This document shows positions 35,201 through 63,696 of a stretch of 64,000 bases of DNA, piece by piece; position 1 is the stretch's first letter, and the number at the start of each line of letters is the position of its first letter. A model generated the notes under the pieces. It had not been told where the DNA came from and did no database searches. It was given only the letters and a program-made list of their open reading frames with translations. Origin of the DNA: Acidimicrobiia bacterium (lineage in GTDB: Bacteria > Actinomycetota > Acidimicrobiia > Spongiisociales > ZC4RG35); NCBI GenBank assembly GCA_040510135.1, contig JBEVJN010000061.1, positions 18,469-82,468 of the forward strand, written 5' to 3'. Both the position numbers and the translations under genes were made by a program.

Positions 35201-35302
35201 TCGCTCTGATTTGAGCTCGCCGAGCGTGGACGACACAAAGACCCTCAATCTCGGGTCGTGATTGGTCGGCTCGAAGCCGCTCCCCTCCCTGGTCGCATCC
35301 AC
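32213..35302 (-). CDS. multidomain STAND signalling protein: DUF4062-like N-domain, class III nucleotidyl cyclase domain, NB-ARC/AAA ATPase, TPR array
   Basis: GTG start at 35302, 1029 aa. The N-domain reads RVFVSSTLGELKSEREAAKSAIKTL...SDIFVGIYWQSYGW. The cyclase domain reads TLTFMFGDLAGSTTL...RLGLHTGTA...GLDVHRASRVASSAHGGQIVVS. Walker A is IVGPGGIGKTRLAL and Walker B is VLLVIDNFEHV. A winged-helix-like SRQRTLDAAIDWSYQLLNREEQALFCRLCVFQGGFT follows, then TPR-like repeats to the C-terminus. Confidence 0.85.
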   Translation of the reverse strand: MDATREGSGFEPTNHDPRLRVFVSSTLGELKSEREAAKSAIKTLRLDPAGMDLGDREGHDEPTIADSDIFVGIYWQSYGWESDLEREYEAGSGLPGLVYVKEPAPDREQGLTDLLDRVRAEARSAVRTFESPGELAEMMVEDLAALMSERFATVGPHADALPGGTLTFMFGDLAGSTTLVEQLGARYADVLTGYHQVVADATLRHEGTIVDLEGERLFSVFQDAFQAVSATVEIQKALDDRLWPESVAVQARLGLHTGTARMGSGGYVGLDVHRASRVASSAHGGQIVVSAPVRELVEGQTEREGWEIKELGSFALKGLSRAEKLFQVLAPGLRAEFPSPRARSITRVRLPKSPNVLVGRDKELAELTEMMGRPNVRLTTIVGPGGIGKTRLALSVAEDCSAHFPDGVYFVNLAAITDPSQVLLAIGDAAGIPIEGDAIDALSSEFQDQQVLLVIDNFEHVAAGGPSVADLLGRSPGLKVLATSRVPLRIMSEYEYTLEPLGLPPTGSDRPDSISASDAVRLFIDRAIAVIPGFSINEENASPVASIVRKVDGLPLAIELAAARLRMLSPGALSDRLTRSLDALGSGAADVPSRQRTLDAAIDWSYQLLNREEQALFCRLCVFQGGFTVESAQEVAVEEGDAVDQLMVLVENSLVLPAQGGEGRLRMLAPMREFGLRHLHEAGEYEWMKDRHADYYVGVADAALEDLRGTKQASVVERFAAEWNNFDVAAEWLMKKADDASLVKMSFGMWVYLWIGNHLKDGARYLAAVRSPQDLDDVLSGRYWWLRGGIQYEMGLYEESKASIDRAMTIVEANGDIDCHNWTDFLSALLLPAYGEDPGEVRESLELSLARFRGFGDRWGEGYALIALGILAGSNGDVEAAERYQLETRNLGFELGNAALIGLAEAQIGFTYISSGRLTEARDALSRSFDVFRGMNYREGLCYALEAAASLSFTEGQTELGMIALGAAEEVRERIGLHPWPLIKWLFDALSAMADSLDDPVLKAARHNGRQLNPFDAAALVLDAAPVPA

Positions 35303-41939: not shown

Positions 41940-42956
41940 CTAGCGAGCCTCGAACTCCAGGATGTGGACCATGTTGTTGGCGTAGCCGTTCTTGTTCCAG
42001 GGCGAGCTCATCGGCTGGCTGTTCCCGGCCGAGTCCGTCGCCCGGGCCATCACCGCGTGCCTGCCCGGTTCGACGACGACCTCATGACGCCAGGCGACAG
42101 CCGCCAGCGGCCCGGAGCCCGGTTCTATCTCTGCCGTCTGCCATGTCTTGCCCCGATCCATCGAGACCCCGACCTCCGCTACGGGCACCTCGCCGGACCA
42201 AGCCGAGCCCATGATGGCGACAGCCCCAGCCGGAACCAACTCCCCCTGGCCTGGCCGGGCGATCAACGATCTGAGCTGGATCTCCGCTACGGGTGATGCG
42301 TCCTCGAACCGATCATCGCCGAGGTATCGGTATCGCTGGACGAAATGGCCGGTAAAAGGCTCGATCGCCCCTTCGATGGCGGCCAGCCATTTCACGGACC
42401 GCATGGCGTAGTGCCCGGGCAGCACAAACCGGATAGGCCCACCGTGCTCGATCCCCAGCGGCGCATCGCCCCAGTGGGTCACGAGGAGAGCCGACCCATC
42501 CTGCACCCGATCGATGGGAACCGAGAACTGGTAGTTGATGTCTCCCTCCGGCCAGACCGTGCCGCGATCGGAACCGGTGAGGACCAGCTCCAGGACCTCG
42601 TCGGGCACCACCCCCAGCGCGTCGACGAGTCGCACTCCGCCGATCCTGATCGGGGATACGCCACCGAGACCCCACTCCAAACCGCTCACCTCCGGCCTCA
42701 CCATCGACCGCCCGTTGCCGGCGCACTCGAGGACCATCTCCATTTCCACCTGATCCAGCTCCGACAGCGTCGCGATGCTCAGAGTGTGCGACGGGCGGCC
42801 CGGCATGAGCACCTCGATCTCAGCGGCCGCCGTCGCGGGGATGGGGAAGCTGTTGCGGAGATATGCCCGATCCTGGGGGATGGGGCTCCCGTCGAGCGCC
42901 GCGAGGGGCACCGCGGCGTTTGGCGGCTCGTCGGTGATGTATTCGAGATCTGACAC
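41940..42956 (-). CDS. sulfite-oxidase-family molybdoenzyme (Moco domain plus dimerisation domain)
   Basis: LECAGNGR molybdenum-cysteine motif and HGGPIRFVLPGHYAMRSVKWL, followed by an Ig-like C-terminal domain (GSAWSGEVPVAEVGVSMDRGKTW). Confidence 0.85.
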   Translation of the reverse strand: MSDLEYITDEPPNAAVPLAALDGSPIPQDRAYLRNSFPIPATAAAEIEVLMPGRPSHTLSIATLSELDQVEMEMVLECAGNGRSMVRPEVSGLEWGLGGVSPIRIGGVRLVDALGVVPDEVLELVLTGSDRGTVWPEGDINYQFSVPIDRVQDGSALLVTHWGDAPLGIEHGGPIRFVLPGHYAMRSVKWLAAIEGAIEPFTGHFVQRYRYLGDDRFEDASPVAEIQLRSLIARPGQGELVPAGAVAIMGSAWSGEVPVAEVGVSMDRGKTWQTAEIEPGSGPLAAVAWRHEVVVEPGRHAVMARATDSAGNSQPMSSPWNKNGYANNMVHILEFEAR

Positions 42957-46127: not shown

Positions 46128-47216
46128 ATGCGTGCCCAGACGACCGTCCGCGTCATCACCCTGCTCACCCTCGTCGGTCTGGTTGGCGTCCTCTTCCCCC
46201 TTGCCGGCCAGGCCGTTACGAAAACTCAGGTCGAGGAGGCCTGCGCCGATTCCCGCGCCCAACTCGATGAGTACCGGGAGGCGCAAGCAGCTTTCGAGGT
46301 AGCCGCCAACGAGTACGAAGACTCCGTGATCGAAGTCGATCGGGTCGAGCGGAAGCAGGAGTCAGTCTCCGGCTCCGTGTCCAGCCACACCGAGGAGCTG
46401 GACCAGATCCAAGCCCGGATCGAGGAGCAGGCGGTAGAGCTTTACATGCGGGGCGGGGTGGCCGGCCCCGGGATCATCTTCTCCGCGTCCTCGGTTGACG
46501 AGTTCATGACTACCTCAGAGTTCCTCACGGCCGCCGCCACCGGAGGACAGGAGTCGTTGGACGAGCTGGTTGCTGCCCGTAGTGAGCTGAACCGGTTCCA
46601 AGCGGTCCTCGACGGCACCCGTGTCGAGCTGGAGGCGGTCGAGGCCGAGAAGTTGGATGCGAGGACCAATCAGGAATCGGCGATGGAAGCTGAGCAGGCG
46701 GCCTATGCAGAACTATCGGGTCGTTGCAAGGAGCTCGCCACCGAATACGACCGGGAACAGGCGGAGCTGGCGGCCCGCGCCCGCCAACGAGCAGCCGGCT
46801 CGGTGCAGGTGGGGTCGTTCATTTGCCCCTTCACACCGGGTCGCACCTCTTTCATCGACTCCTGGGGAGCGCCGCGGTCGGGGGGTCGTGCCCACAAAGG
46901 CACCGACCTATTCGCTGCGTGGAACGAGCCGATGTACGCGGTTGCCTCAGGCCGTGTCGCGCTCGGCAGCAGCGCGCTCGGCGGCAACACCATCTGGCTC
47001 TTGGCGGACAGTGGGATCGGCTACTACTACGCCCACCTCTCCGGTTTCAACGTCGCTTCGGGGTCGTCGGTGAGCCAGGGCCAGACGATCGGCTTCAACG
47101 GAGACAGCGGCAACGCTAGCGGCGGCTCACCACACCTCCACTTCGAGATTCATCCTGGTGGGCGAGGTGGGTCCGCGGTAAATCCGTATGCGACGCTGGC
47201 TGGGGCATGCAGGTAG
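46128..47216 (+). CDS. M23-family peptidoglycan metalloendopeptidase with N-terminal coiled coil
   Basis: Signal/[23 protein letters not shown], a long Glu/Ala-rich coiled-coil region, then HKGTDLFA and HLHFEIH zinc motifs. Confidence 0.85.
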
Positions 47217-47226
47217 CCTGCGCCTT

Positions 47227-47757
47227 GTGAGCGAGCACCGCCGCACCATCGACATCGTTCTCGAGCCCGAGTATCTGGCGGACATCTCCGAGGCCGACCT
47301 CGACGAGCTGCGGCAACGGCGAGAGGCGGCCGAGGACGTGGAGAGTCAGATCTCCTATTACCGCCGCCTGCTCCACGGTCGGGTCGACCTGCTCAATTTC
47401 GAGTTGCGCCGCCGTAGCGGGCAGGAGGAGCGGAGTCTGATCGAGGCGTTGCCTGAGATCCTCGCTTCGGGGATGACCTTTGGCAACGAGCCAAATCTGC
47501 GCCATCTCGACACGATGCCTCCCCTTCCGCCCTCGACCGGCCGTCGCCTCATCGACAGGATCATGGACGACGGCATCCTCACTCAGCTCCCGGAGCTGAC
47601 CGACGAAGAGCTCTCAGAGGCGATCGATCGGGTACAGGAGGTGGAGGCCGAGCTCTCGGCACAGCGGCGCCAGCTTCATGTCGTCATCGACGCACTGCAG
47701 GACGAGATCATCGCCCGCTATCGAAGCCAGCAGGGCGAGGCACAGCCGGCGAGCTGA
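47227..47757 (+). CDS. RsiG-like protein (anti-sigma-WhiG / c-di-GMP-binding coiled-coil family)
   Basis: The GTG at 47227 lies 11 nt after the upstream stop. N-terminus LEPEYLADISEADLDELRQRREAAE. Two copies of E-x3-S-x2-R-x3-H-x3-D (ESQISYYRRLLHGRVD at 47341-47388; EAELSAQRRQLHVVID at 47644-47691). Confidence 0.7.
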   Translation: MSEHRRTIDIVLEPEYLADISEADLDELRQRREAAEDVESQISYYRRLLHGRVDLLNFELRRRSGQEERSLIEALPEILASGMTFGNEPNLRHLDTMPPLPPSTGRRLIDRIMDDGILTQLPELTDEELSEAIDRVQEVEAELSAQRRQLHVVIDALQDEIIARYRSQQGEAQPAS

Positions 47758-52925: not shown

Positions 52926-53080
52926 TACACACGAAGGCGGGTTCCGTACCGTGGGGCGGGCTGGGAGGCTATCCGTTCACACCTTGGACGAACGTGCCCT
53001 AGGTATGAGGGGAACGGCGACCCTCCTTCTTGCATGCGTGTCCATTATCGGTCACCCACGGTGGTTACTTGAACAATTCT

Positions 53081-53323
53081 GTGTTCAGATTTCTGATTAG
53101 GCCCGGATGCCATCTCTGCGACGAGTCTCGGCCGGTCGTCGACAAGGAGGTGGCACGGGTCGGAGGCATCATCGAGGAGATCGATATCGACATCGATGAT
53201 GCTCTGACCAGGGATTATGGGTTGCGGGTGCCGGTCGTTCTCGGGCCGGGCGACATCGTGCTCGCGGAGGGGAAGATCGAGGCCCGGGCCTTGCGACGGG
53301 CTCTGCGAAGACTGGGGACCTAG
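53081..53323 (+). CDS. glutaredoxin-like (DUF836-type) thiol-disulfide protein
   Basis: The GTG at 53081 gives VFRFLIRPGCHLCDESRPVV...YGLRVPVVL, a CxxC thioredoxin-fold mini-protein. The upstream part of the 53030 ORF is unlikely to be coding. Confidence 0.7.
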   Translation: MFRFLIRPGCHLCDESRPVVDKEVARVGGIIEEIDIDIDDALTRDYGLRVPVVLGPGDIVLAEGKIEARALRRALRRLGT

Positions 53324-53344: not shown

Positions 53345-54385
53345 TCACGGCATCCGGGCCGCGGCGGCTTCGGCGCCGCTCACCGTGGTCGTGGGCTCTC
53401 CCTCCGCCGGCGGTTCCCCATCGGGTGTGGTCTCGCCTGGAGCGCCTCCCCCTTCGCCTTCCGCCGGGGCCAGGCCGCAGTCGGTGAGAGTCTCGGCAGA
53501 ATCGGCGCCACCGAAGCGGACCCGTTCGAAGGTGACAACCGAGGCCAATTGCTCCTCGGTGAGACTCGCTCCAAAGGCTGGCATACCGCCCGCGATCGGC
53601 TTGCCGGTGTCCCCATAGCTGCTCTCACCCGAGTCCAGGAAACCTTGCGAACCGAGTGTGACCCACTCGATGTGATCGGCACACGATCCGAACGTGGTGA
53701 GAACGCCACTGAAGGCCGGGCCGACCCCACCTTGCCCCTGGCCGCCATGACATCCGTCGCAATTGGCCACATTCATATAGACGTCCTCGCCCATGGCGAC
53801 GAAGTCGCCGCCCCCTCCACCGGCGCCGGAACCGGTGAACTCGGTGCCGTCGCAGTTGACCACCTGGCCGGTGATGACGTTGGTGGCGAGCTCGGTGGCC
53901 TCACCGCACTCACCGGTGGCGGAGCCGCCGAGAGCGAAGAGTGCGAAGGCGGGGATGATCAGCATGACCGCGGCCAACCAGCGGGGGATAGCCAGATTCG
54001 TCCTCTCCCGAATGCCCGCGGTGGGAACCGTGATCACCTCGGGAAGTCCGGCAGCCTCGGCCGCGGTCACCTCGGCCGGGATCGGGGAGCGGGTCACCGG
54101 GCCGGCGGGAGCCCCGGAGGGTGCGGCAGCCGGCGGGACCGGGACTTCATCAGCAATCTCCTCCTCATCATCGGCAGCCGTCTCGGAGTCAGTCGCTGCT
54201 TCCTCAACAGCGGGTGGAGGTTCGGAGGGTGCTGACGACGCGCCAGCGACCGACCCGCCCCCCGCCCAAGCGGCCAAGACCTCGTCGACCGACATCCCTG
54301 TCTCGGCGGCACGGGCGGCGGCAGAGCGCTGGACGATGGCCTCGGGGATGCCGAGAGCGACAGCGGCGGCGCTGAGGTCGCTCAT
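53345..54385 (-). CDS. membrane-anchored monohaem class I cytochrome c (CcoP-position gene)
   Basis: N-terminal cytoplasmic motif GIPEAIVQRSAAARAAETGMSVDEVLAAWAGG, an acidic/Pro linker, TM helix WLAAVMLIIPAFALFALGG, haem motif CDGCHG and Met-ligand region GGMPAFG. ATGA overlap with the upstream gene. Confidence 0.8.
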   Translation of the reverse strand: MSDLSAAAVALGIPEAIVQRSAAARAAETGMSVDEVLAAWAGGGSVAGASSAPSEPPPAVEEAATDSETAADDEEEIADEVPVPPAAAPSGAPAGPVTRSPIPAEVTAAEAAGLPEVITVPTAGIRERTNLAIPRWLAAVMLIIPAFALFALGGSATGECGEATELATNVITGQVVNCDGTEFTGSGAGGGGGDFVAMGEDVYMNVANCDGCHGGQGQGGVGPAFSGVLTTFGSCADHIEWVTLGSQGFLDSGESSYGDTGKPIAGGMPAFGASLTEEQLASVVTFERVRFGGADSAETLTDCGLAPAEGEGGGAPGETTPDGEPPAEGEPTTTVSGAEAAAARMP

Positions 54386-55236
54386 GGCGTGGTGGTCTCC
54401 TCGGTGGGTGTCTCCCCTTCGGGGGCAGGCTCCTCATCGGTGGGGGCCTCGTCGGATGTTTCCTCTTCGGGCGCTGCGGCCTCCTCGAGGGTCGCCGACT
54501 CGCTCATGTACGCCACCAGGGCATCGAGATCCTCGGATGAGAGCGACAATGACGGATGGTCGTCGAGCCCGAGGATGATCGCCTCGATCTGACTGGCCGT
54601 GATCCGCGCTCCGACATTGGACAGATCCGGTCCGAATCGCCGCGATCCGAGCACCTGATTGGTGTCGTTCAGCGACACCGCCCCGAGACCGACATCGGCC
54701 ACCACCGGACGAACCATCTGCGTGTGGCAGGAAGCACAGCCGACCGACTGGTAGATCTCTTGCCCCTGCAGGGCCGTCTCGGTGTAGGGCAGGTCGCTGG
54801 TCCGCGCGCCCGGGTTCTCGGTGGGCAACGAGGGACCGATCACACCGACCAGGAAGAGGGCGACGAAGAGCCCCACCGCCCCGACCAGCACTGCGATCGG
54901 GTTGTCGGACTCTCCAACGAGTACCGGTGGCTTCCCCGGAGGAGTCGGGGCGGTGACCGGAGGAACCCGCGGCGTTTCGATCACTGGCGTTGGCGTCGGT
55001 GACGGAGCGGCGTCCGACTCTGCGGGCTCTTCGGTAGACGTCGCCGGCTCCTTGGCAGCTTCGGGCTCCGCTGGCGTGGGTGGCGCGGGTGGAGGGATGT
55101 CGCCACCGCCGGCCCAAGCGGTCAGCACGTCGTCCACGGTCATCCCGGTCTCTTCGGCGCGAGCCGCAGCAGAGCGCTCCACGATGGCCTCCGGGATGCC
55201 AAGAGCGGCGGCTGCAGCCGCGCTCAGCTCACTCAT
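54382..55236 (-). CDS. CcoO/FixO-like monohaem cytochrome c subunit
   Basis: The ATG at 55236 gives the same N-terminal motif (GIPEAIVERSAAARAEETGMTVDDVLTAWAGG) and a TM helix. ALQGQEIYQSVGCASCHTQMVRP...GSRRFGPDLSNVGAR...DLDALVAYM matches the FixO family as I recall it. Confidence 0.8.
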   Translation of the reverse strand: MSELSAAAAAALGIPEAIVERSAAARAEETGMTVDDVLTAWAGGGDIPPPAPPTPAEPEAAKEPATSTEEPAESDAAPSPTPTPVIETPRVPPVTAPTPPGKPPVLVGESDNPIAVLVGAVGLFVALFLVGVIGPSLPTENPGARTSDLPYTETALQGQEIYQSVGCASCHTQMVRPVVADVGLGAVSLNDTNQVLGSRRFGPDLSNVGARITASQIEAIILGLDDHPSLSLSSEDLDALVAYMSESATLEEAAAPEEETSDEAPTDEEPAPEGETPTEETTTP

Positions 55237-56746
55237 CTGCGTCCCGATCGCCGCTGGCGTCCGGACCGTAGACCAGGACCTCCTGGGGGACAGCCTTGCC
55301 CGCGGTGACAGTCCCGATGACGGTGGCCGCATACGCCAGCTGACCGATGAAGGCCACTATGCCGAATCCAAAGGCGACGAGCATCAGGACCTCGGCCGAC
55401 CCTGCACCGGCGGCCCATCCCTCGCCGGCGTTCACGTAGGCAGCGCTGTTCGACCCTGCCACCCACGAGTAGCCACTGACCAGGCCGGCCCCGATCATGC
55501 TCACGGTGACCCCGCCCACCCCGACGACGGTCCAACGGTTGAACGACCTAGGCCGATCCAAGGTGGCCGGCTCGCGGCCGGCGACCCGCGGCAATGCCTC
55601 GAACACGACGCCCGCAGCCAGCAACACACCAACGCCGTACAACGCCCCGTACTCGATCGCCTCCCAGTAGGCAGTGAGTGCGGCAATCGACCCCACTGAG
55701 GGGAAGGCGGCGAAGGCAGCGAGGATGGCCACGGCTACTCCTAGGTAGAGGCCGACCACGCCTGAGACCACCCCCGGCTTGTCCCTCAATTCTTCCCAGT
55801 GCCCCTGCAGGGTCAGCGAGGCGTTGGCGGCGTTGGCCAGGGCGCCGATGGGGAAAGCGAGGCCCAATGCGGCCGACACGCCGTCGATCCAACCCGGACC
55901 CGGGCCAAAGACGAGTTGCGCCGACCCCCACCAGGCGGCGGCGAAGCCGAGCGACCAAAAACCAACCGAGGCCAGCTGGCGTGAGGCGAGAGGTATGTCC
56001 AACTCCTTGACCAGCGTGTAGTAGAAGAGCCCGCTGCCAACGGTGAACACCCAGAGCGTTACGAATCCGGCGGAGAAGAAGAGATCGGAGTATTCCGCGC
56101 CAAGGGAGCTCACGAATGGCAGGTTTCCCGCCGTGTAGACGAGATAGAGCAAGGGCAACCAGACCACTCCGCCGATCACGAACCACAGAGTGACGAAGCT
56201 CCGTTTCTCCTCCCGACGCCGGATGGTCATCATGGTGACCGCGAACGGGATGGTCAGCACCGCCAGCATCGGGAGGTGGAGCCACCAGGGCAGGCCGAGC
56301 GGCTGCCGCCCCTCGCCGAACCCGAAGAGGATGGCCAGGAGGTCGAGCACGACGAGGCCCGAGACGCCCAGGAGACCGAGATAAGCCAGCTCCTTCCGCC
56401 AGAGTCGGGCGCCGGTGAGCCGGGGGAGGACGTAATAGATTCCGCCGGCCAGCGTCAGCACCAAAAAGCCGAGCATGACGGTGATGTTGGCCATCGACTC
56501 GGCCCGGCCGTAGCTGATCGGGGAAAGCCCGGCGAATCGCAGCGAGAAGAGGGCGAAGAGCTGGAAGATGCCGGCCAACACCAGAAACAGCGCACCTACC
56601 AGGAAATGGGCAACGGCGACGCGGTCCTCATCTCCGGCCCCGAGGAGGGCCCTGATGTCTGCAGTTTGGGTTGCGGCCAAGGGTTCCCTCGTCGCGGAAC
56701 GGGACGGCGGGAGCATAACTACTTCCTCGATTCCTTCTGCAGCCAC
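55229..56746 (-). CDS. CcoN-like (haem-copper oxidase subunit I fold) 12-TM protein lacking the canonical histidine ligands
   Basis: 505 aa with about 12 hydrophobic segments and an 8-nt overlap with the CcoO-like gene. Several stretches resemble CcoN blocks, but the whole protein has only three His (VAHFLV, WWLHLP, LQGHWEE). GTG start at 56746, alternative ATG at 56716. Confidence 0.7.
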   Translation of the reverse strand: MAAEGIEEVVMLPPSRSATREPLAATQTADIRALLGAGDEDRVAVAHFLVGALFLVLAGIFQLFALFSLRFAGLSPISYGRAESMANITVMLGFLVLTLAGGIYYVLPRLTGARLWRKELAYLGLLGVSGLVVLDLLAILFGFGEGRQPLGLPWWLHLPMLAVLTIPFAVTMMTIRRREEKRSFVTLWFVIGGVVWLPLLYLVYTAGNLPFVSSLGAEYSDLFFSAGFVTLWVFTVGSGLFYYTLVKELDIPLASRQLASVGFWSLGFAAAWWGSAQLVFGPGPGWIDGVSAALGLAFPIGALANAANASLTLQGHWEELRDKPGVVSGVVGLYLGVAVAILAAFAAFPSVGSIAALTAYWEAIEYGALYGVGVLLAAGVVFEALPRVAGREPATLDRPRSFNRWTVVGVGGVTVSMIGAGLVSGYSWVAGSNSAAYVNAGEGWAAGAGSAEVLMLVAFGFGIVAFIGQLAYAATVIGTVTAGKAVPQEVLVYGPDASGDRDADE

Positions 56747-56795
56747 GACACTTGGCGCGATGGGCCGCTACCAGGGTTCTCTCACGAGACCCGGG

Positions 56796-56813
56796 TTGTG
56801 GTAGAAACCACGT
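56796..56813. promoter_or_regulatory. candidate Rex-type operator in the divergent intergenic region
   Basis: TTGTGGTAGAAACCACGT has GTG-N8-CAC core spacing and palindromic GTGGT/ACCAC arms. It lies in the 99-bp region between the two respiratory operons, and rex is encoded at the end of the cluster. Confidence 0.3.
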
Positions 56814-56845
56814 GAACAGATATACGAACGCGCCGAAGACGAGAG

Positions 56846-57451
56846 ATGTATCGCCTCGCAGAACTGAGCGACAGCAGACGCAAGAGCATCGGATGGGGAC
56901 TGCTCGGTCTCGGCTTCGTCGGTCTCGTGGCGGCGGTGATCTGGATCCACTACACGAGCCTCCCTCCGGAGCAAGACGCGGGCATCTTCGATTGGATACC
57001 TAGCAATCACTTGTTGAAGGGTGTCGGTTATCTGGTCGTGTTCGGCGCCTCGCAGATGATGGTGGTTGGTGCGTTGTTCATCTGGGTGCTCAACCAGAGG
57101 ATGACCTGGGCCCGTGCGCTCTTCGCTTCCTTCGTCACGTGGATCGAGCTCGTCATCATCTTCGGGATGGTTCCCTCGGAGTGGCTCAACTTCGCCCAGA
57201 CCGATCTCGACTGGTCGTCACAACGGGTGGCGGTCACGATCCCGCCGTTCCTGGTGCTGGGCAACGAAGTCCAACTCAGCTGGGCCGCCATCAAGGACTC
57301 GATCTCGATGGGCTATCACCTGGTGATGCTGGCGGCGGCGGCGGTGTTCGCGCTTCAGCTGCAGAAGATGAAAAAGGGCCCGCCGGCCTCGGCCGAGAAG
57401 GCCCCGCCCCGCTCGCCTTACGGGCGTCCGCTGGTCAGGGGTGAAGGCTGA
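56846..57451 (+). CDS. four-TM membrane protein, first gene of the cytochrome b/Rieske operon
   Basis: 201-aa ORF whose stop overlaps the ferredoxin start (TGATG). TM segments include IGWGLLGLGFVGLVAAVIWI, VGYLVVFGASQMMVVGALFIWVL, LFASFVTWIELVIIFGMV and MGYHLVMLAAAAVFALQL. I recognise no motif. Confidence 0.65.
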   Translation: MYRLAELSDSRRKSIGWGLLGLGFVGLVAAVIWIHYTSLPPEQDAGIFDWIPSNHLLKGVGYLVVFGASQMMVVGALFIWVLNQRMTWARALFASFVTWIELVIIFGMVPSEWLNFAQTDLDWSSQRVAVTIPPFLVLGNEVQLSWAAIKDSISMGYHLVMLAAAAVFALQLQKMKKGPPASAEKAPPRSPYGRPLVRGEG

Positions 57452-57908: not shown

Positions 57909-58685
57909 TTGGCCAACGGCAACGGTAAGACCGGCATCACGGACAAGATCAAAGAGGTCAACGACAAGCTCTGGGGCTCCCAGGTCGCGGAGTCGATCCT
58001 CCGTCCGGGCTCGCCCTTCAAGAAGGGTTACTCGGACAGCCCGAGGAACCGGTCGTATGTGGTCATGAACAACGTGCTGTATCACCTCCACCCGGTGAAG
58101 GTGAAGCGGCACGGCGTCAAGCTTTCCTACACGTTGTGTCTGGGCGGTCTCAGCTTCTTCCTCTTCATCCTCCTCACCATCACCGGCATCTTCCTCATGT
58201 TCTATTACACGCCGTCCGCGGAGACTGCCTATGCCGATATCGAGGCGCTGTCCACCAACGTCGCCTTTGGCTCCCTCGTGCGGAACATGCACCGTTGGGG
58301 AGCTCATCTCATGGTCCTGTCGGTATTCCTCCACATGAGCCGCGTCTTCTATCACGGTGCCTACAAGCCACCCCGCGAGTTCAACTGGGTGGTGGGCGTG
58401 CTGCTCCTCTTCCTGACCCTCTTGCTTTCCTTCTCTGGCTATTTGCTCCCCTGGGACCAATTGGCCCTGTGGGCGGTCACTGTGGGAACCAACATGGCGG
58501 GATTCGTCCCTGTGGTGGGCAATGAGGTGAAATTCGCCCTTCTGGCCGGGGTCGAGGTGTCAGGCGCCACCCTTCTCCGCTTCTACGTGCTGCACGTGCT
58601 CGCTTTCCCGTTCATCCTCGTGATCTTCCTTGCGGTGCACTTCTGGAGGGTGCGCAAGGACGGCGGCATCTCCGGGCCCCTCTAA
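57909..58685 (+). CDS. cytochrome b6-type cytochrome b (N-terminal four-helix half)
   Basis: GGAGG lies 4 nt upstream of the TTG at 57909. Helix B His pair in [17 protein letters not shown] (13 residues between). Helix D pair in [18 protein letters not shown] (14 between, b6-type). A conserved Cys sits in YTLCLGG, the haem ci position in b6. Confidence 0.9.
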
Positions 58686-58696
58686 AGGAGTCGTCA

Positions 58697-59821
58697 ATGA
58701 CAGAAATTCCAGAGAGTCTCCTCAGGAGATCGGCCGAGGCAAAGGCCAAGGCATTGGGCCTGCCTGTGGAGCAGGTGCTGGCCGAGATGAAGGGGGAGGC
58801 CCCGCCCACACCACCGCCCTCTGCAGAGCCCCCGGGTGAGCCCGAGGCGACAGTGGCGGACGAGATGGAGGAGGCTGCGGAGCGCTCCGAGGAGATCGAG
58901 GAGGCTGTGGAGTCGGTCGATGACGAGCCTGCGCCGGTAGAAGAAGAGGCGCCCGAGCCTGCGGCCGAAACCGAACCAGAGGTCGTGACCGAGAGCGCAA
59001 CCGACGTTCCCCCCGCCCCGCCCACCGAAGCCCCGCCGATCGAGGACAGCGAGGAGGCACTCACTCCCGCGGCCTCGGCTGAGTCGTCGGACGAAGCCGC
59101 GCCCGAGACAGAGGTCGAGCCTGCCGCGGCCGCGGTAGCGACCGCGGTTGAGGACCGGCCCGCCGCGGAAGGAGATGGCGGTGGCGATGGAGCCGGAGAC
59201 GGCGCGGGCAATGGGTCCGGAAACGGCGCCGGGAACGGCAAAGTGGCCGCCGTGGTGAGCACACGTCCCACCGTGCCCCCCAAGGGGACCCCGGAAGGCG
59301 TGCGGACCCAGCGTCTGCTCACCGTGGTCAAGGCCCGGGCCATCCAGACGGTCAAGGCCGAGCCAACCGACAAGGTCAACACCTGGCCCCACCTGATGCT
59401 CATGGAGTTCGGGGCGTTGCTGGCGATCACCGGTCTGGTGGTGATCATGTCGGTGGTCATCCATTCCCCGCTGCTCGACCCGGCCAACTTCAACGCCACT
59501 CCCAACCCCTCGAAGGCGCCGTGGTACTTCCTCGGCCTCCAGGAGCTTCTCTCCTACTTCGATCCGCAGATCGCCGGGGTGACGATCCCAACGATCACCG
59601 GGATCATCGGGTTCATGATGGTGCCGTATGTCGACAAGAATCCCTCGACCCGGCCCAGTGACCGCAAGTTCGCCATCGCCCTCTACTCGGTGTTCCTCGC
59701 CGGGGCCGCCACACTCACCATCTTTGGCGTCCTCTTCCGGGGCCTCGGATTCAACTTCTCCTATCCCTGGAAGGACGGGGTCTATTTCGATGACTTGAAG
59801 GACTGGGTGCAATTCGAATGA
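58697..59821 (+). CDS. cytochrome b C-terminal half (subunit IV/PetD-like) with long N-terminal extension
   Basis: AAGGAG lies upstream of the ATG. N-terminal motif IPESLLRRSAEAKAKALGLPVEQVLAEMKGE, about 150 aa of acidic/Pro/Gly-rich linker, then WPHLMLMEF...NPSKAPWYFLGLQELL (Qo-motif region) and two further TM helices. Confidence 0.85.
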   Translation: MTEIPESLLRRSAEAKAKALGLPVEQVLAEMKGEAPPTPPPSAEPPGEPEATVADEMEEAAERSEEIEEAVESVDDEPAPVEEEAPEPAAETEPEVVTESATDVPPAPPTEAPPIEDSEEALTPAASAESSDEAAPETEVEPAAAAVATAVEDRPAAEGDGGGDGAGDGAGNGSGNGAGNGKVAAVVSTRPTVPPKGTPEGVRTQRLLTVVKARAIQTVKAEPTDKVNTWPHLMLMEFGALLAITGLVVIMSVVIHSPLLDPANFNATPNPSKAPWYFLGLQELLSYFDPQIAGVTIPTITGIIGFMMVPYVDKNPSTRPSDRKFAIALYSVFLAGAATLTIFGVLFRGLGFNFSYPWKDGVYFDDLKDWVQFE

Positions 59822-60699
59822 CCCTGACCAACGCCGCCCTCTTTGCAGTCGCCGTCGTGGCGATTCTCGGGGCGGCCGGGGCATTTGCCGTTGCATATCG
59901 CCGGTCCCAGACCACCGAGAAAGCTGACCCGCTGGCCGGCGTCTCGCCGGAGACCCGCGCCGCCGACCGGTCGTCGACCGCGGTCGTGATTCCACCCCGC
60001 GTCGAGGACGTGGAGGAGACCGTCGAGGAGGAGGCCGAGGCCGAGGCCGAGTCCGAGCCGGTCGAGGTGGAGGATGACGCAGTTGTCGAGATCCTCGAGA
60101 CCCAGCGGATCGTCGAGGTCTCCCCTGAGGAAGGCGGGGTCAGCCGGCGGCAGTTCTTCAACCGCGCGATTGCCGCAACGTTTGGTGTTTTCCTCGCAGC
60201 ACAGGGTCTCTACTACCTCGCCTTCTTCTGGCCCAAGCTGACCGGTGGCTTCGGCGCGGATATCGACGCCGGGCCGGTGTCCGACCTGCGCACTCAGGTC
60301 TTCACTCCCGACGGCGCCGTGCTCCCGCTTTTCATTCCCGAGGCCCGGGCCTACCTGGTCCCTGCGCCCGAGGAGCTATCCGAGCAGTTCGAGGGCCAGG
60401 GGGTGGAGACCGACGGCCTGATGGCTCTGTACATGCGATGTGTCCACCTCGGGTGCCGGGTGCCGTGGTGCGCCCCGTCACAGGGCTTCGAGTGTCCTTG
60501 CCACGGGTCGAGGTACAACGCCATTGGCCAATACTTCGGTGGGCCTGCCCCCCGTAACCTCGACCGGTTCGTGGTGGAGAACCAGGGCGGCAATCTCATC
60601 ATCCGCACCGGCTCAATAATCCAGACGCCCCGGGCGCCGGTGTTGCTCGTCCCATACCCGCAGGGACCGAGCTGCATCAGTGCCGTGGCCGAGGCATGA
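59818..60699 (+). CDS. Rieske [2Fe-2S] subunit
   Basis: ATGA overlap with the upstream gene. Twin-arginine-like SRRQFFNRAI. Cluster boxes CVHLGC and CPCHGS. Confidence 0.9.
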   Translation: MTLTNAALFAVAVVAILGAAGAFAVAYRRSQTTEKADPLAGVSPETRAADRSSTAVVIPPRVEDVEETVEEEAEAEAESEPVEVEDDAVVEILETQRIVEVSPEEGGVSRRQFFNRAIAATFGVFLAAQGLYYLAFFWPKLTGGFGADIDAGPVSDLRTQVFTPDGAVLPLFIPEARAYLVPAPEELSEQFEGQGVETDGLMALYMRCVHLGCRVPWCAPSQGFECPCHGSRYNAIGQYFGGPAPRNLDRFVVENQGGNLIIRTGSIIQTPRAPVLLVPYPQGPSCISAVAEA

Positions 60700-62618
60700 C
60701 CGCCAACCTCATCACGGTCATCGCCCTGGTCGCAGGGATCGCCTGGCTGGGCATGCTCTTCGTGTCAGCCATCCGCAATCGCGGCGGTGAGGAGGTGGCC
60801 CCGCAACCCCGACCCGGGATCGACGCCGAGACCGTCGAGACGCGGCGGCTGGAGGGAGGGCAGAAGGCGGCGATCGCCTTCTCCGCATTCCTGGCCATAT
60901 CGCTCCCCCTCTACTTTCTCACCGAGCAGGAGCGGCAGGAGGGCTTCGTCGAGGAGTTCGCCGAGGGCTCGATCGAGCGGGGCCAGCATCTCGTCGAGGA
61001 GTTCGGCTGTTTCAACTGTCACGGACCCGAGGGGTCGGGTGGCGTTGCCCCCTATGTTGAGAAGCGCTCTGGCATCGCCGTCGAGTGGGCGGCTCCGTCG
61101 CTCAACGACGTCTTCTTCAGATACGAGGAGGACGAGGTCAACTTCTGGGTCACCTACGGTCGGGGCAACACCCCCATGCCCGCCTGGGGCATCCCAGGTG
61201 GTGGTCCGCTCAACGAACAGCAGGTCGAAGACGTGGTCAATTACCTGGCGACGATTCAGGTCACACAGGACGAGAACCTGGCCGACGTCGAGCCCGGAAT
61301 CAACACCGCGTTGGACCGGCTGGCCAACGCCGACGCCACGGTCGAGGTCGCCATCCTCGACCAACGTCAAGTGGTGGCCCAGATCGAGTCGGCGCCTGAC
61401 GACCTGGATCTCGTCGTCCCCCTTGCAACTGATGCCCGAGAAGCGCTGGACGGAGCCGGAGAAGGTATCGACACAGATGCCGACGGCATCTCCGATGCGG
61501 CAGAGAGCGAGCTCAGCGCCATCTCGGCCAAGGCGGTGGAGGGGTTCCGGATCATGGAGCCGATCGCCCTCGACCCGGAGGTGGCCGATGCCGAGCTGGC
61601 CGACGATGCTCTGGCAGCCTTGGAGCTCGCATCTCAGACCGACCCCATCGTGACAACACAAAGCCGGGCCATCGAGAGCGCCATCGAAGAAGGCACCCTC
61701 GACCCGGCGGTGGGGCTCAGCCCGGCGGCTTTGACCTCTCTGGAGGAGACCCGGGTTGCGGCGGAAGAGCTCGGCCTAGAGGTCCCCGTCGCCGTGGAGG
61801 ACCTGGATGCGGCGAACGAGTTGGTGGCTGCGCTCGATGCTGCAGGAGCCGCCGAGGAGCCGGTCGAAGGTGCAGCCGACCTGGCGGCGGAGGCGACCTC
61901 AGCGATCGAGGATGGCTCCGATCCCGATGGAGATGGGCTTTCGACGGGTGCCGAGAACGACATCAACGGCCAGATCGAAGCGGCCATCACTGCCACAACG
62001 CCGCCCGAGATCATCCCGGTCACTCTGGATCCAACCAACCCGGCCTCGGTTGGTGGGGAGCCCGATGCCGTGACCGCCAACACCCTTGTGAGCAACCTCG
62101 AGACGTTGGTCACGACCCTCTCGGTCACTGAGCAGAACCAGGATGCTCTGCTCGAAACCGCTGAGGGCGGCTTGGCCTACCTCGAGGAATCCCAACAAGC
62201 CCAGCTGTATTCGATCGATTTCGCCGGGGTGGCCGAAGCCATGGCATCCCCTCCTGAGGAGGCGGAGCGGGCAGTGGGCTTGTTCAACTCCAATTGCGCC
62301 CGGTGTCACACCGCCGGCTACAGCGCAGGTGTCCCCTACACCCAAGAGGCGGGATCGGGTGGGTTCGGGCCGGCGTTGTGGGACGGTCGGCCGACGGTTC
62401 AGTTCGGCGACGCAAATGAGGATCCGGCGCAGGATCTATTGGTCCAGTTCTTGATCAGGGGCTCCGAGGCCGAGACGCCCTACGGCATCAACGGGTTCGG
62501 TACGGGCCGTATGCCGGCCTTCGGCGCGAGCCTCAGTGTGGAGGACATCGAGCTGCTGGCCCGCTATCTCAGGGGTGGGAATATGGATGGGAAGGAGGCC
62601 ACCGTTGTTCTTCCGTGA
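60696..62618 (+). CDS. membrane-anchored dihaem cytochrome c with a large acidic insertion
   Basis: ATGA overlap with the upstream gene. Two N-terminal TM helices. CFNCHG (about aa 105-110) with PMPAWG, and CARCHT (about aa 534-539) with GRMPAFG. The intervening region is Asp/Glu/Ala-rich and carries DTDADGISD and DPDGDGLS motifs. Confidence 0.85.
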   Translation: MTANLITVIALVAGIAWLGMLFVSAIRNRGGEEVAPQPRPGIDAETVETRRLEGGQKAAIAFSAFLAISLPLYFLTEQERQEGFVEEFAEGSIERGQHLVEEFGCFNCHGPEGSGGVAPYVEKRSGIAVEWAAPSLNDVFFRYEEDEVNFWVTYGRGNTPMPAWGIPGGGPLNEQQVEDVVNYLATIQVTQDENLADVEPGINTALDRLANADATVEVAILDQRQVVAQIESAPDDLDLVVPLATDAREALDGAGEGIDTDADGISDAAESELSAISAKAVEGFRIMEPIALDPEVADAELADDALAALELASQTDPIVTTQSRAIESAIEEGTLDPAVGLSPAALTSLEETRVAAEELGLEVPVAVEDLDAANELVAALDAAGAAEEPVEGAADLAAEATSAIEDGSDPDGDGLSTGAENDINGQIEAAITATTPPEIIPVTLDPTNPASVGGEPDAVTANTLVSNLETLVTTLSVTEQNQDALLETAEGGLAYLEESQQAQLYSIDFAGVAEAMASPPEEAERAVGLFNSNCARCHTAGYSAGVPYTQEAGSGGFGPALWDGRPTVQFGDANEDPAQDLLVQFLIRGSEAETPYGINGFGTGRMPAFGASLSVEDIELLARYLRGGNMDGKEATVVLP

Positions 62619-62980: not shown

Positions 62981-63022
62981 CCGTCGTATGTGATACGACG
63001 GATCCCGTCAAAGACGGGATCC
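62981..63022. terminator. two abutting perfect hairpins between convergent operon end and rex
   Basis: CCGTCGTAT-GTG-ATACGACGG (62981-63001) and GGATCCCGTC-AAA-GACGGGATCC (63000-63022). The second overlaps the last rex codons. No U-tract. Confidence 0.45.
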
Positions 63023-63625
63023 GTAATAGCTCAACACCTGTAGCTCCATCGACAGGTCGACCTGACGCACCGAAACCTTGTCCGGCACGTTCACCCGGAT
63101 TGGTGCGAAATTGAGGATCGAGCGAATCCCATGCTCCACGAGACGATCGGCAACCTGTTGGGCTGCCACCGCGGGCACGGCAAGGATGGCGATTTCGAAG
63201 GTCTTCGACTGGCAATCGCCATCGAGCACGTCCAGATCCTGGATGATGACGCTGCCCACCGTAGATCCGATCTTCCGGACGTCTGTGTCGTACAAGGCCA
63301 CGACATCGAAGCCCCGGCGACTCAGCCCGGCGTAGTTGGCCAGAGCTCGGCCCAGGTTCCCCGCTCCGACGATCGCGACCCGTTGCCGATCGGCGATCCC
63401 GAGCTCCTGGCGAATCCGCGCCTTGAGCTCCGCCACCGAATAGCCGATCCCTCTGACCCCGTGGAAGTCGATATGGGAGAGGTCCCTGCGGACGTTGGCC
63501 GCATTGGCGCCTGCTGCGGTCGCCAACTCCTCCGAGCTGACGACATCCTTCGATGAATCCAGATCTTCCAGCAGTCGCAGATAACGGGGCAGGCGGACGA
63601 CTGTGGCCTTTGGGATTTCATTCAC
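63008..63625 (-). CDS. rex: redox-sensing transcriptional repressor Rex
   Basis: IPKATVVRLPRYLRLLEDL winged-helix N-terminus, and VAIVGAGNLGRALANY Rossmann NADH-binding motif. 205 aa. Confidence 0.9.
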   Translation of the reverse strand: MNEIPKATVVRLPRYLRLLEDLDSSKDVVSSEELATAAGANAANVRRDLSHIDFHGVRGIGYSVAELKARIRQELGIADRQRVAIVGAGNLGRALANYAGLSRRGFDVVALYDTDVRKIGSTVGSVIIQDLDVLDGDCQSKTFEIAILAVPAVAAQQVADRLVEHGIRSILNFAPIRVNVPDKVSVRQVDLSMELQVLSYYGSRL

Positions 63626-63696
63626 AAGCTCACGATAAACCGGCGCGACGTGCTCGGAATCCCCGCAGGTGAGCAGGCCTTCTAACCTCTCCTTCG

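Follow-up and report, generated by a model that had tools for sequence, protein, structure and literature searches.

A cbb3 oxidase subunit I homologue without cofactor ligands is encoded beside a Rieske/cytochrome b6 operon in Acidimicrobiia

Organisation of the locus

The window analysed here is a stretch of 64,000 nucleotides (G+C 62-69%) from an Acidimicrobiia bacterium, and its main subject is a group of three minus-strand open reading frames (ORFs) within positions 53345-56746. In the order of transcription these encode an N-like protein, which is homologous to subunit I (CcoN) of cbb3-type oxidases and has lost the cofactor ligands of that subunit, an O-like cytochrome c related to CcoO/FixO, and a P-like cytochrome c. 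The group is transcribed divergently from a second operon that encodes the subunits of a Rieske/cytochrome b6 complex. The features of the group and of its control region are:

55229-56680, minus strand: N-like gene, CcoN homologue without cofactor ligands and with a core of 12 transmembrane helices (COX1, ccoN, AlphaFold2 model, Foldseek, substitution rates)
54382-55236, minus strand: O-like gene, CcoO/FixO-like monohaem cytochrome c (FixO, PDB CcoO matches)
53345-54385, minus strand: P-like gene, membrane-anchored monohaem class-I cytochrome c in the ccoP position (Cytochrome_CBB3, 31.8 bits)
56681-56845, unstranded: divergent control region between the two operons (two conserved DNA motifs, 23 intergenic regions aligned)

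The N-like stop and the O-like start share 8 nucleotides (ATGAGTGA, 55229-55236), and the O-like stop and the P-like start share 4 (ATGA, 54382-54385), overlaps through which the three genes are predicted to be translationally coupled. The original prediction, made from the letters of this window, had described this layout with both overlaps, and the ORFs and junctions were recovered at the same coordinates. It had also given the first product as 505 amino acids, which is the length of the mechanical ORF from GTG 56746; ATG 56716 and TTG 56680 are alternative starts. The true start is probably TTG 56680, with a ribosome-binding site GAGGGAA and a product of 483 amino acids. GTG 56746 and ATG 56716 are less likely because the ATG sits inside a DNA motif that is conserved even where its reading frame is closed.

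That motif, AGTAGTTATGCTCCCGCCG, is one of two that emerged from the alignment of 23 intergenic regions, the other being GTTTCTACCACAA, and both are kept across loci whose N-like proteins are 58-98% identical to that of the window. As the frame of ATG 56716 closes after 7 codons in two loci (L037 and L068), a promoter (-10 TATGCT) or leader element is a likelier reading of AGTAGTTATGCTCCCGCCG than a coding segment. No Rfam match and no structured RNA were found in the intergenic region 56681-56845. A Rex operator in this divergent promoter was considered and rejected, there being no box in it; the best Rex-like box of the window lies at the rex gene itself.

The N-like protein belongs to the haem-copper oxidase superfamily

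The N-like protein matched Pfam COX1 at 71.6 bits (E 8e-20, gathering cut-off 34.8) and TIGR00780 (ccoN) at 95.6 bits, short of the equivalog cut-off of 583.15. All matches in a sequence search of the PDB were CcoN chains of cbb3 oxidases, which a profile of 26 family sequences retrieved with E-values of 6e-17 to 2e-23; canonical cbb3, at 18-20% identity, is the closest relative in the PDB. The AlphaFold2 model, for which the family alignment served as input (predicted local distance difference test 79.9, predicted template-modelling score (pTM) 0.83), superposed best, in a Foldseek search, on Pseudomonas stutzeri CcoN (3mk7; E 1e-17, template-modelling score 0.81/0.88, root mean square deviation 2.9 Å, 19% identity). 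Other cbb3 structures followed, then cNOR NorB and then ba3 oxidases, with chains of bc1-cbb3 supercomplexes (6xkw, 8smr and 9g83) ranking among the top structural matches. The 12-helix fold and the significant COX1 similarity place the protein in the haem-copper oxidase (HCO) superfamily. Because of the Pfam COX1 match, the PDB CcoN matches and the fold superposition, it is a true C-family HCO homologue, for which the curated libraries (Pfam and NCBIfam) hold superfamily-level matches only. The original prediction had proposed a profile search as its own check; COX1 recognises the protein, the fold agrees, and all four of the CcoN blocks that had been aligned were reproduced in HMMER alignments. 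In the source databases (NCBI, JGI) proteins of this family are titled 'cbb3-type cytochrome c oxidase subunit I'.

Loss of all six ligand histidines

The N-like protein contains exactly three histidines, H47, H157 and H316 (numbered on the 505-residue ORF). A profile alignment to P. stutzeri CcoN (3mk7_A) assigns the ligand positions as follows:

H60, low-spin haem b ligand: A86
H347, low-spin haem b ligand: Y366
H345, high-spin haem b3 ligand: I364
H207, CuB ligand: A226
H257, CuB ligand: A276
H258, CuB ligand: Q277, invariant in the family
Y251, cross-linked tyrosine: A270

This mapping was checked independently with 150 representatives from a deep HMM search, aligned by hmmalign to the family profile. 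Histidine occupies 6/6 ligand columns in the twenty canonical CcoNs of this alignment, which validates the mapping, and nearly all of them have tyrosine at the Y251 column; at the seven columns, Y251 included, the window protein reads A/A/A/A/Q/I/Y. The idea that ligand histidines are hidden by misalignment was rejected, given three histidines in total, relatives with as few as one, and the correct alignment of the canonical CcoNs. Both the count of three histidines and their absence from the ligand positions, as originally predicted, are confirmed by the two alignments. As all six metal ligands and the cross-linked tyrosine are gone, the N-like protein, judged by its sequence, cannot act as a conventional O2 or NO reductase, again as predicted. 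That leaves the N/O/P module with just two redox centres, one haem c in the O-like protein and another in the P-like protein.

The losses extend to further positions with a conservation of 85% or more among canonical CcoNs. Arg57 is replaced by E83, a reversal of charge, Glu122 by Q148 and Glu125 by G151, residues that presumably serve haem-propionate and Ca binding; Asn208 is replaced by G227 and His337 by A356. Thr215 (threonine in 100% of canonical CcoNs), Ser240 (serine in 85%) and Tyr317 (tyrosine in 90%), which we take to be residues of the cbb3 proton (input) channel, have become F234, A259 and G336. About half of the conserved CcoN positions are kept, mostly glycine, proline, tryptophan and tyrosine in loops and helix packing. 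Measured against CcoN proper, the protein lacks the low-spin haem site, the haem b3/CuB site, the cross-linked tyrosine and the channel residues, and stays below the TIGR00780 cut-off. It is not a cNOR NorB either, as the histidine columns common to NorB and CcoN are all non-histidine, and NorB is a second-tier fold match only.

The ligand-less family is broad and under purifying selection

A search of 5.8 billion proteins returned 427 relatives of the N-like protein. The 120 relatives listed of these are 59-98% identical and have 1-7 histidines each, one of them a single histidine. An alignment of 26 sequences (identity to the window protein down to 59%) has 102 invariant columns; H47 is the sole invariant histidine, and the invariant polar residues include R42, H47, E83, N87, Q277 and E365. 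In a scan of one genome per GTDB species the family was found in 169 genomes, from which 80 loci were fetched for the locus comparisons given below. Most of the 80 genomes are titled as Acidimicrobiia or Actinomycetota metagenome-assembled genomes (MAGs), and the N-like ORF is intact in all 80 independent assemblies. Ratios of nonsynonymous to synonymous substitution rates (dN/dS), computed pairwise against nine orthologues, are:

N-like: 0.05-0.14
Rieske: 0.08-0.13
O-like: 0.09-0.19
P-like: 0.11-0.20
Cytochrome b6: ~0.03
Ferredoxin: ~0.01

The N-like gene is under strong purifying selection, as tight as that on the Rieske gene. An intact ORF coupled to intact c-type cytochromes had been predicted, and this description holds, the O-like CxxCH motif being present in 74/74 orthologues; the survey of orthologues that had been suggested found purifying selection and no pseudogene-like decay. 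That the gene is a pseudogene in decay, or a normal ccoN distorted by sequencing or assembly errors, is favoured by the missing ligands and by nothing further. This reading is ruled out by the dN/dS values, by the 102 invariant columns, by the recurrence of the same substitutions across the family and by the 80 intact independent assemblies, which leave it a negligible probability.

An exhaustive profile search (E<=1e-3) returned 955 clusters at 50% identity. Ligand histidines were counted in the 92 near-full-length representatives among the best 150 of these clusters: none is kept in 63/92, one to three in 10/92, five in 3/92 and all six in 16/92, proportions that the query profile skews toward ligand-less forms. 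The phenomenon is wider than the original prediction could see, with many diverse ligand-less relatives. A crude neighbour-joining tree groups the ligand-less proteins in a single contiguous block apart from canonical CcoN and places a few partial-loss forms among the canonical sequences. Relatives with partial ligand sets are P0166, P0191, P0231, P0234, P0235, P0251, P0264, P0268 and P0269, of which P0234 keeps only H60 and H347, the two low-spin haem b ligands; by their residues they appear to mark independent or transitional steps towards loss of the active site.

The ligand-less block includes fusions of 610-700 amino acids that join an N-like protein to a FixO domain (for example P0171). 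An AlphaFold2 model of a natural N-O fusion reached a pTM of 0.86, with the O-type transmembrane helix placed confidently after the 12-helix core. Another relative, P0160 (locus L081, 5020-7104), is a ligand-less N-like protein fused to a cupredoxin domain, with ResB/CcsA before it and a COX2-like protein with a cytochrome c domain after it. From this case the N-like scaffold seems to have been combined with various periplasmic redox domains.

The O-like and P-like cytochromes

The O-like protein consists of a cytoplasmic N-terminal module, a proline-rich linker, one transmembrane helix and a class-I haem domain. It matched Pfam FixO at 47.6 bits (cut-off 29.6) over profile positions 29-114 of 219 and scored 46.8 bits against the TIGR00781 equivalog, below the cut-off of 200.65. 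PDB CcoO chains aligned at E ~1e-9 across CxxCH(T/S)QM(V/I)RP...GPDL. The N-terminal transmembrane helix, the monohaem c domain with CxxCH and the FixO match together bear out the CcoO/FixO-like assignment that had been made for this product. His227 is conserved in 73/73 orthologues, and His227-Pro228 (window 54556-54561) occupies the class-I axial Met-Pro position when compared with the P-like and dihaem c domains. In the N-O fusion relatives this site still reads MPSY (Met-Pro). Because this invariant His-Pro replaces the axial Met-Pro, the haem c of the Acidimicrobiia O-like protein is predicted to have bis-His ligation and a lower potential.

The P-like protein contains a Cytochrome_CBB3 domain (31.8 bits) with a single CxxCH at residue 209 and the motif GGMPAFG, in agreement with the membrane-anchored monohaem cytochrome c predicted as the last product. 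Against TIGR00782 (ccoP) it scored 19.8 bits, with a cut-off of 179.95, and it is not a dihaem CcoP. The label 'ccoNOP-like' stands for N, for O and for the gene order, but the third protein is monohaem and no strict CcoP homologue.

A Rieske/cytochrome b6 operon with a ferredoxin subunit adjoins the N-like family

The second operon comprises six genes:

56846-57451, plus strand: mem201, the first operon gene, a membrane protein of 201 amino acids with 4 transmembrane helices
57451-57900, plus strand: 2[4Fe-4S] ferredoxin-type subunit, no transmembrane helix and no signal peptide (Fer4 families)
57909-58685, plus strand: cytochrome b6, N-terminal half of a split cytochrome b (Cytochrome_B, E 4e-47)
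58697-59821, plus strand: subunit IV, C-terminal half of cytochrome b with a long N-terminal extension (Cytochrom_B_C)
59818-60699, plus strand: Rieske iron-sulfur protein (Rieske domain)
60696-62618, plus strand: dihaem cytochrome c of 640 amino acids (two cytochrome c domains)

Cytochrome b6 passed NF040969 (ExtP) at 301.6 bits (cut-off 290), has a CxGG motif (LCLGG) and carries the histidine pairs 128/142 and 229/244. Subunit IV, at 47.9 bits with the ExtQ model, fell short of the cut-off of 150 and has the Qo motif APWY at residue 274. The cluster boxes of the Rieske protein are intact (CVHLGC...CPCH). The split cytochrome b with its four histidines, CxGG, APWY and the Rieske boxes assign the complex to the APWY clade of Rieske/cytochrome b6 complexes. 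In what it states of this clade, the survey of Kao & Hunte (2014, PMC4122944) presents it as uncharacterised, as occurring in several phyla including deep-branching Actinobacteria (Ilumatobacter, Rubrobacteridae), and as possibly operating in reverse. Among cultured organisms it records a split cytochrome b of the APWY or PEWY type for Ilumatobacter coccineus, Conexibacter woesei and Rubrobacter xylanophilus. The dihaem cytochrome c has two N-terminal transmembrane helices, a long acidic middle and CxxCH at residues 105 and 534. The ferredoxin-type subunit resembles FwdF/MvhB polyferredoxin modules, NuoI and RnfB, and no gene of the locus is more highly conserved (86-99% identity); the presence of such a subunit on a Rieske/b6 complex suggests that the complex exchanges electrons with low-potential cytoplasmic carriers. 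For mem201 no Pfam, NCBIfam or PDB relative was found. A cytochrome b/Rieske operon lying head to head with the N/O/P genes had been predicted and is borne out by Pfam and NCBIfam matches; the dihaem c and the ferredoxin go beyond what had then been listed.

The divergent arrangement of N-O-P and mem201-ferredoxin-b6-subunit IV-Rieske-dihaem c recurs in 80/80 loci, with gaps at contig ends only; mem201 is seen in 77/80. Among eight distant ligand-less relatives, six adjoin a Rieske/b6 operon, five of them directly in the two-operon arrangement (P0144, P0171, P0174, P0240 and P0136) and one, P0196, with a Ccm cluster interposed. The N-like protein is nearly always encoded beside a Rieske/b6-ferredoxin operon and is always partnered with a CcoO-like haem c. 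One of the distant lineages, L087, is Actinomycetota, judged by its NuoD. Just downstream of N/O/P in L083, L085, L086, L087 and L088 lies a gene for a geranylgeranyl-reductase-like FAD protein (~410-450 amino acids), often followed in distant lineages by a nuo (complex I) operon; the window has its glutaredoxin-like gene at this position.

A common N-terminal module in the O-like protein, the P-like protein and subunit IV

The O-like protein, the P-like protein and subunit IV all begin with a motif of ~40 amino acids, IPExxxxRSAxAxAxxxGxxVxxVL, separated from the first transmembrane helix by a long acidic or proline-rich linker:

55099-55236, minus strand: module at the O-like N-terminus, ~46 amino acids (hmmsearch E 4e-25)
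54251-54385, minus strand: module at the P-like N-terminus (hmmsearch E 2e-26)
58697-58804, plus strand: module at the subunit IV N-terminus (hmmsearch E 8e-20)

Across the ORFs of the 64-kb window the module profile matched these three proteins only, and their predicted topology puts each of the three N-termini in the cytoplasm. Searched in isolation, the modules had no Pfam match below E 0.18, and the module region had none in the PDB. A Pfam MIF match of the three-copy subunit IV of L088 (25.1 bits, cut-off 22) was marginal and was judged spurious. The distant loci vary in copy number:

L088 (N-O fused): subunit IV x3, P-like x1
L086 (N-O fused): subunit IV x3-4, P-like x1
L083/L084 (N-O fused): P-like x2, subunit IV x1-2
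L089 (N, O and P separate): subunit IV x2, O-like x1, P-like x1
L082 (separate, on a truncated contig): one copy each on subunit IV, O-like and P-like, whose ORFs are all incomplete
L081, L085, L087 (the most divergent loci): no copies

Each complete distant locus that has the module thus carries 3-5 copies and, where N and O are fused, tandem modules are carried by subunit IV or the P-like protein. The module could be a new tethering or partner-binding domain. Synteny aside, no feature of the sequences speaks more strongly for the pseudo-oxidase cytochromes and the b6 complex belonging to one assembly or having a common cytoplasmic partner.

Other genes of the window and taxonomic titles

Two further genes flank the locus:

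63008-63625, minus strand: Rex-type redox-sensing repressor (Put_DNA-bind_N + CoA_binding)
53030-53323, plus strand: glutaredoxin-like (DUF836) protein downstream of P-like (Glrx-like)

The rex gene is present in 55/80 loci, the others being cut by contig ends, and the glutaredoxin-like gene in 64/80. A Rex-operator-like inverted repeat, TTGGGATTTCATTCACAA (63610-63627, plus strand), has 2 mismatches to TTGTGAA-N4-TTCACAA and overlaps the rex start, which suggests that rex may be autoregulated. A sulfite-oxidase-family molybdoenzyme (Oxidored_molyb + Mo-co_dimer) is encoded at 41940-42956 on the minus strand, ~10 kb from the locus; members of this family are usually linked to cytochrome c. The protein of 1029 amino acids at 32213-35302 (minus strand) combines DUF4062, an adenylate/guanylate cyclase, an AAA ATPase and TPR in a STAND-like signalling architecture. 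An RsiG-like anti-sigma factor of the c-di-GMP switch family (47188-47757, plus strand) adjoins an M23 peptidase (46128-47216, plus strand), a pair that is syntenic in L089 too.

Many Microflora Danica (MFD) MAG records (L001, L004-L006, L008-L010, L012, L028, L030, L050 and others) bear the title 'uncultured Acidobacteriota bacterium'. In gene sequence they share 88-98% identity with records titled Acidimicrobiia, L050 matches the window at 98% identity, and RsiG is one of several actinobacterial markers in the window; the 'uncultured Acidobacteriota' titles are probably wrong. Two further loci are titled Gammaproteobacteria and Boseongicola.

Discussion

We lean towards a model of the N-like protein as a scaffold that has no cofactors of its own and joins c-type cytochromes to the Rieske/b6 complex. 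As a dead-enzyme membrane platform it would hold the O-like and P-like cytochromes at the outer membrane face and dock them onto the neighbouring complex with its APWY Qo motif, ferredoxin subunit and dihaem c. The resulting assembly would be a fixed, supercomplex-like chain of c haems, through which electrons would pass between the Rieske/dihaem-c end and a separate acceptor or donor whose genes lie elsewhere. The cytoplasmic modules on the O-like protein, the P-like protein and subunit IV may anchor these proteins to one shared partner in the cytoplasm, for which the ferredoxin subunit is a candidate. Such an arrangement could be the remnant of an ancestral b6c-cbb3 supercomplex in which the O2-reducing site was lost and the scaffold became entrenched. 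From synteny and the shared module we infer that N/O/P and the b6 complex are physically associated, and the natural N-O fusions together with the model of the fusion indicate that the N-O partnership has been kept. The original prediction had offered two kinds of use for a ligand-less scaffold. The supercomplex module has gained from the synteny of 80/80 loci, from six of the eight distant relatives and from the common module, whereas a proton-conducting unit has been weakened by the replacement of T215, S240 and Y317.

Several observations weigh against the scaffold model. A 12-helix anchor is expensive for cytochromes that have transmembrane helices of their own, and the conservation of the N-like protein exceeds what a passive anchor needs. 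The invariant polar residues R42, H47, E83, N87, Q277 and E365 hint at a more specific activity, and four of them (E83, N87, Q277 and E365) sit where cofactors once were. The Rieske/b6 operon already has a dihaem c, so that extra c haems are not obviously needed, and a Pfam scan of 37 ORFs of the window found no terminal oxidase that could act as electron acceptor. Two distant ligand-less relatives are not clearly beside a complete Rieske/b operon: P0158 adjoins complex I and multihaem genes, while P0160, with its cupredoxin fusion and its COX2-like and ResB/CcsA neighbours, has only a ferredoxin gene visible divergently.

The buried polar residues are the natural starting point for an ion- or proton-conducting or conformational coupling subunit, akin to the antiporter-like subunits of complex I and driven by redox changes of the c haems or b6. 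E83, N87, Q277, N305 and E365 are invariant, E365 lies between two lost histidines, and the dN/dS of the N-like gene is below that of the cytochromes it supposedly anchors. The presumed residues of the cbb3 proton pathway, T215, S240, Y317 and Y251, which canonical CcoNs conserve, have however become F, A, G and A, and a protein with no binuclear centre has no obvious energy source, which makes this role unlikely. The same conservation could be read as a redox cofactor bound through non-canonical ligands (H47, Y366 or residues of partner subunits) for some other redox reaction. H47 is invariant in the family and frequent in other ligand-less clusters, Y366, which stands where CcoN has the low-spin haem ligand H347, is ~96% conserved, and a few relatives keep partial ligand sets, such as P0234 with H60 and H347. 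Yet H47 lies near the cytoplasmic end of the first transmembrane helix, away from both canonical haem sites, no conserved methionine, cysteine or lysine offers a second ligand, Arg57 is charge-reversed to E83 and E122/E125 are lost, and the H347 position is variable in the broader ligand-less group (tyrosine 15%, leucine 15%). We regard a cryptic cofactor as distinctly unlikely.

Two further alternatives remove the N-like protein from the Rieske/b6 complex. N/O/P might form an independent membrane complex of c-type cytochromes that exchanges electrons with an extracellular or periplasmic partner and has only its regulation in common with the Rieske/b6 operon; the separate, divergently transcribed operon would fit, as would the differing neighbours of P0158 and P0160 (complex I, multihaem cytochromes, COX2-like). 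This too is unlikely, as adjacency to Rieske/b6 persists at N-like identities of ~26-31% and the module common to subunit IV is found in no other protein of the window. An assembly or maturation factor, haem-handling or chaperone-like, that serves the c cytochromes or b6 but is not a stoichiometric subunit would account for the cytochrome c maturation genes adjoining in two distant loci (ResB/CcsA in L081, Ccm in L087) and for the glutaredoxin-like gene conserved downstream. The translational coupling and the fusion with the O-like cytochrome point instead to a 1:1 complex, there are no maturation genes at the window locus, and we consider this role very improbable.

Beyond the scaffold model lies a bolder proposal, which we advance tentatively and consider less probable. 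The ligand-less C-family homologues may be ancient, obligate subunits of an unrecognised respiratory machine of deep-branching Actinomycetota, composed of Rieske/b6, the 2[4Fe-4S] ferredoxin, a pseudo-cbb3 arm and the tethers of ~40 amino acids. If so, the machine might link quinol oxidation with a high-potential chain of c haems and, at the same time, with low-potential iron-sulfur chemistry in the cytoplasm, in a bifurcating or reversible Q-cycle.

A large, old and strongly selected group that has the HCO fold and a cytochrome c partner and keeps zero cofactors would be a clear respiratory pseudoenzyme, and it indicates that the HCO scaffold has a second, non-catalytic use. A second implication is an as yet uncharacterised respiratory complex, an APWY-type Rieske/b6 equipped with a ferredoxin subunit, in Actinomycetota that are abundant in soil and sediment. 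The consequences reach annotation, as at least one metagenome study credits Acidimicrobiia-type MAGs with cbb3 oxidases by annotation. If such calls rest on the ligand-less family, the high-affinity microaerobic respiration deduced from them is wrong; a check for the six histidines is a simple fix for this misannotation.

Comparison with known systems

No characterised or described ligand-less CcoN was found in the full-text-searchable literature or the PDB (subscription literature and theses lay outside this search), in keeping with the original statement that no characterised example was known. To our knowledge, described members of the HCO superfamily are defined by their haem and metal centres. 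The closest relative is the cbb3 oxidase itself (3mk7), with which the locus has in common the 12-helix fold of subunit I, about half of the structural positions, the coupled N-O gene order, a CcoO-like partner with CxxCH(T/S)QM(V/I)RP and GPDL, and a membrane-anchored cytochrome c as third gene. It differs in an N-like protein without the ligands of haem b, haem b3 and CuB, without the cross-linked tyrosine, Arg57, Glu122/Glu125 and the channel residues, in an O-like protein that lacks the C-terminal half of FixO and has His-Pro for the axial Met-Pro, and in a P-like protein that is monohaem.

The bc1-cbb3 supercomplexes of Rhodobacter capsulatus (6xkw) and Pseudomonas aeruginosa (8smr) likewise set a C-family subunit I with c cytochromes beside a Rieske/b complex. 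In contrast to the present locus, they contain a working oxidase and have no fixed divergent gene pair, and the association proposed here is deduced from synteny and a shared module. A comparable case is mitochondrial bc1, in which the core 1/2 proteins derive from the MPP peptidase and are catalytically dead structural subunits. There too a dead enzyme homologue serves as structural subunit of an electron-transfer complex, although the protein family is unrelated and the analogy is one of principle only.

The APWY-clade complexes (PMC4122944) resemble the neighbouring operon in their split cytochrome b, CxGG in b6 and APWY in subunit IV; the portion of that paper concerned with the clade makes no mention of an HCO-like protein, a ferredoxin subunit or N-terminal modules alongside it. 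The nitric oxide reductase (NOR) families with altered sites, eNOR, bNOR, sNOR, gNOR, nNOR and cNOR/qNOR (PMC11214002), also have a divergent HCO subunit I, without O2 reduction and without the active-site tyrosine. As described by Murali et al. (2024, PMC11214002), these families keep a metal active site, and no more than a single ligand differs, with Asp in place of His in gNOR. On this comparison by published description, the present N-like family differs from all of them in that it keeps zero ligands and persists as a fold with its cytochrome c partner.

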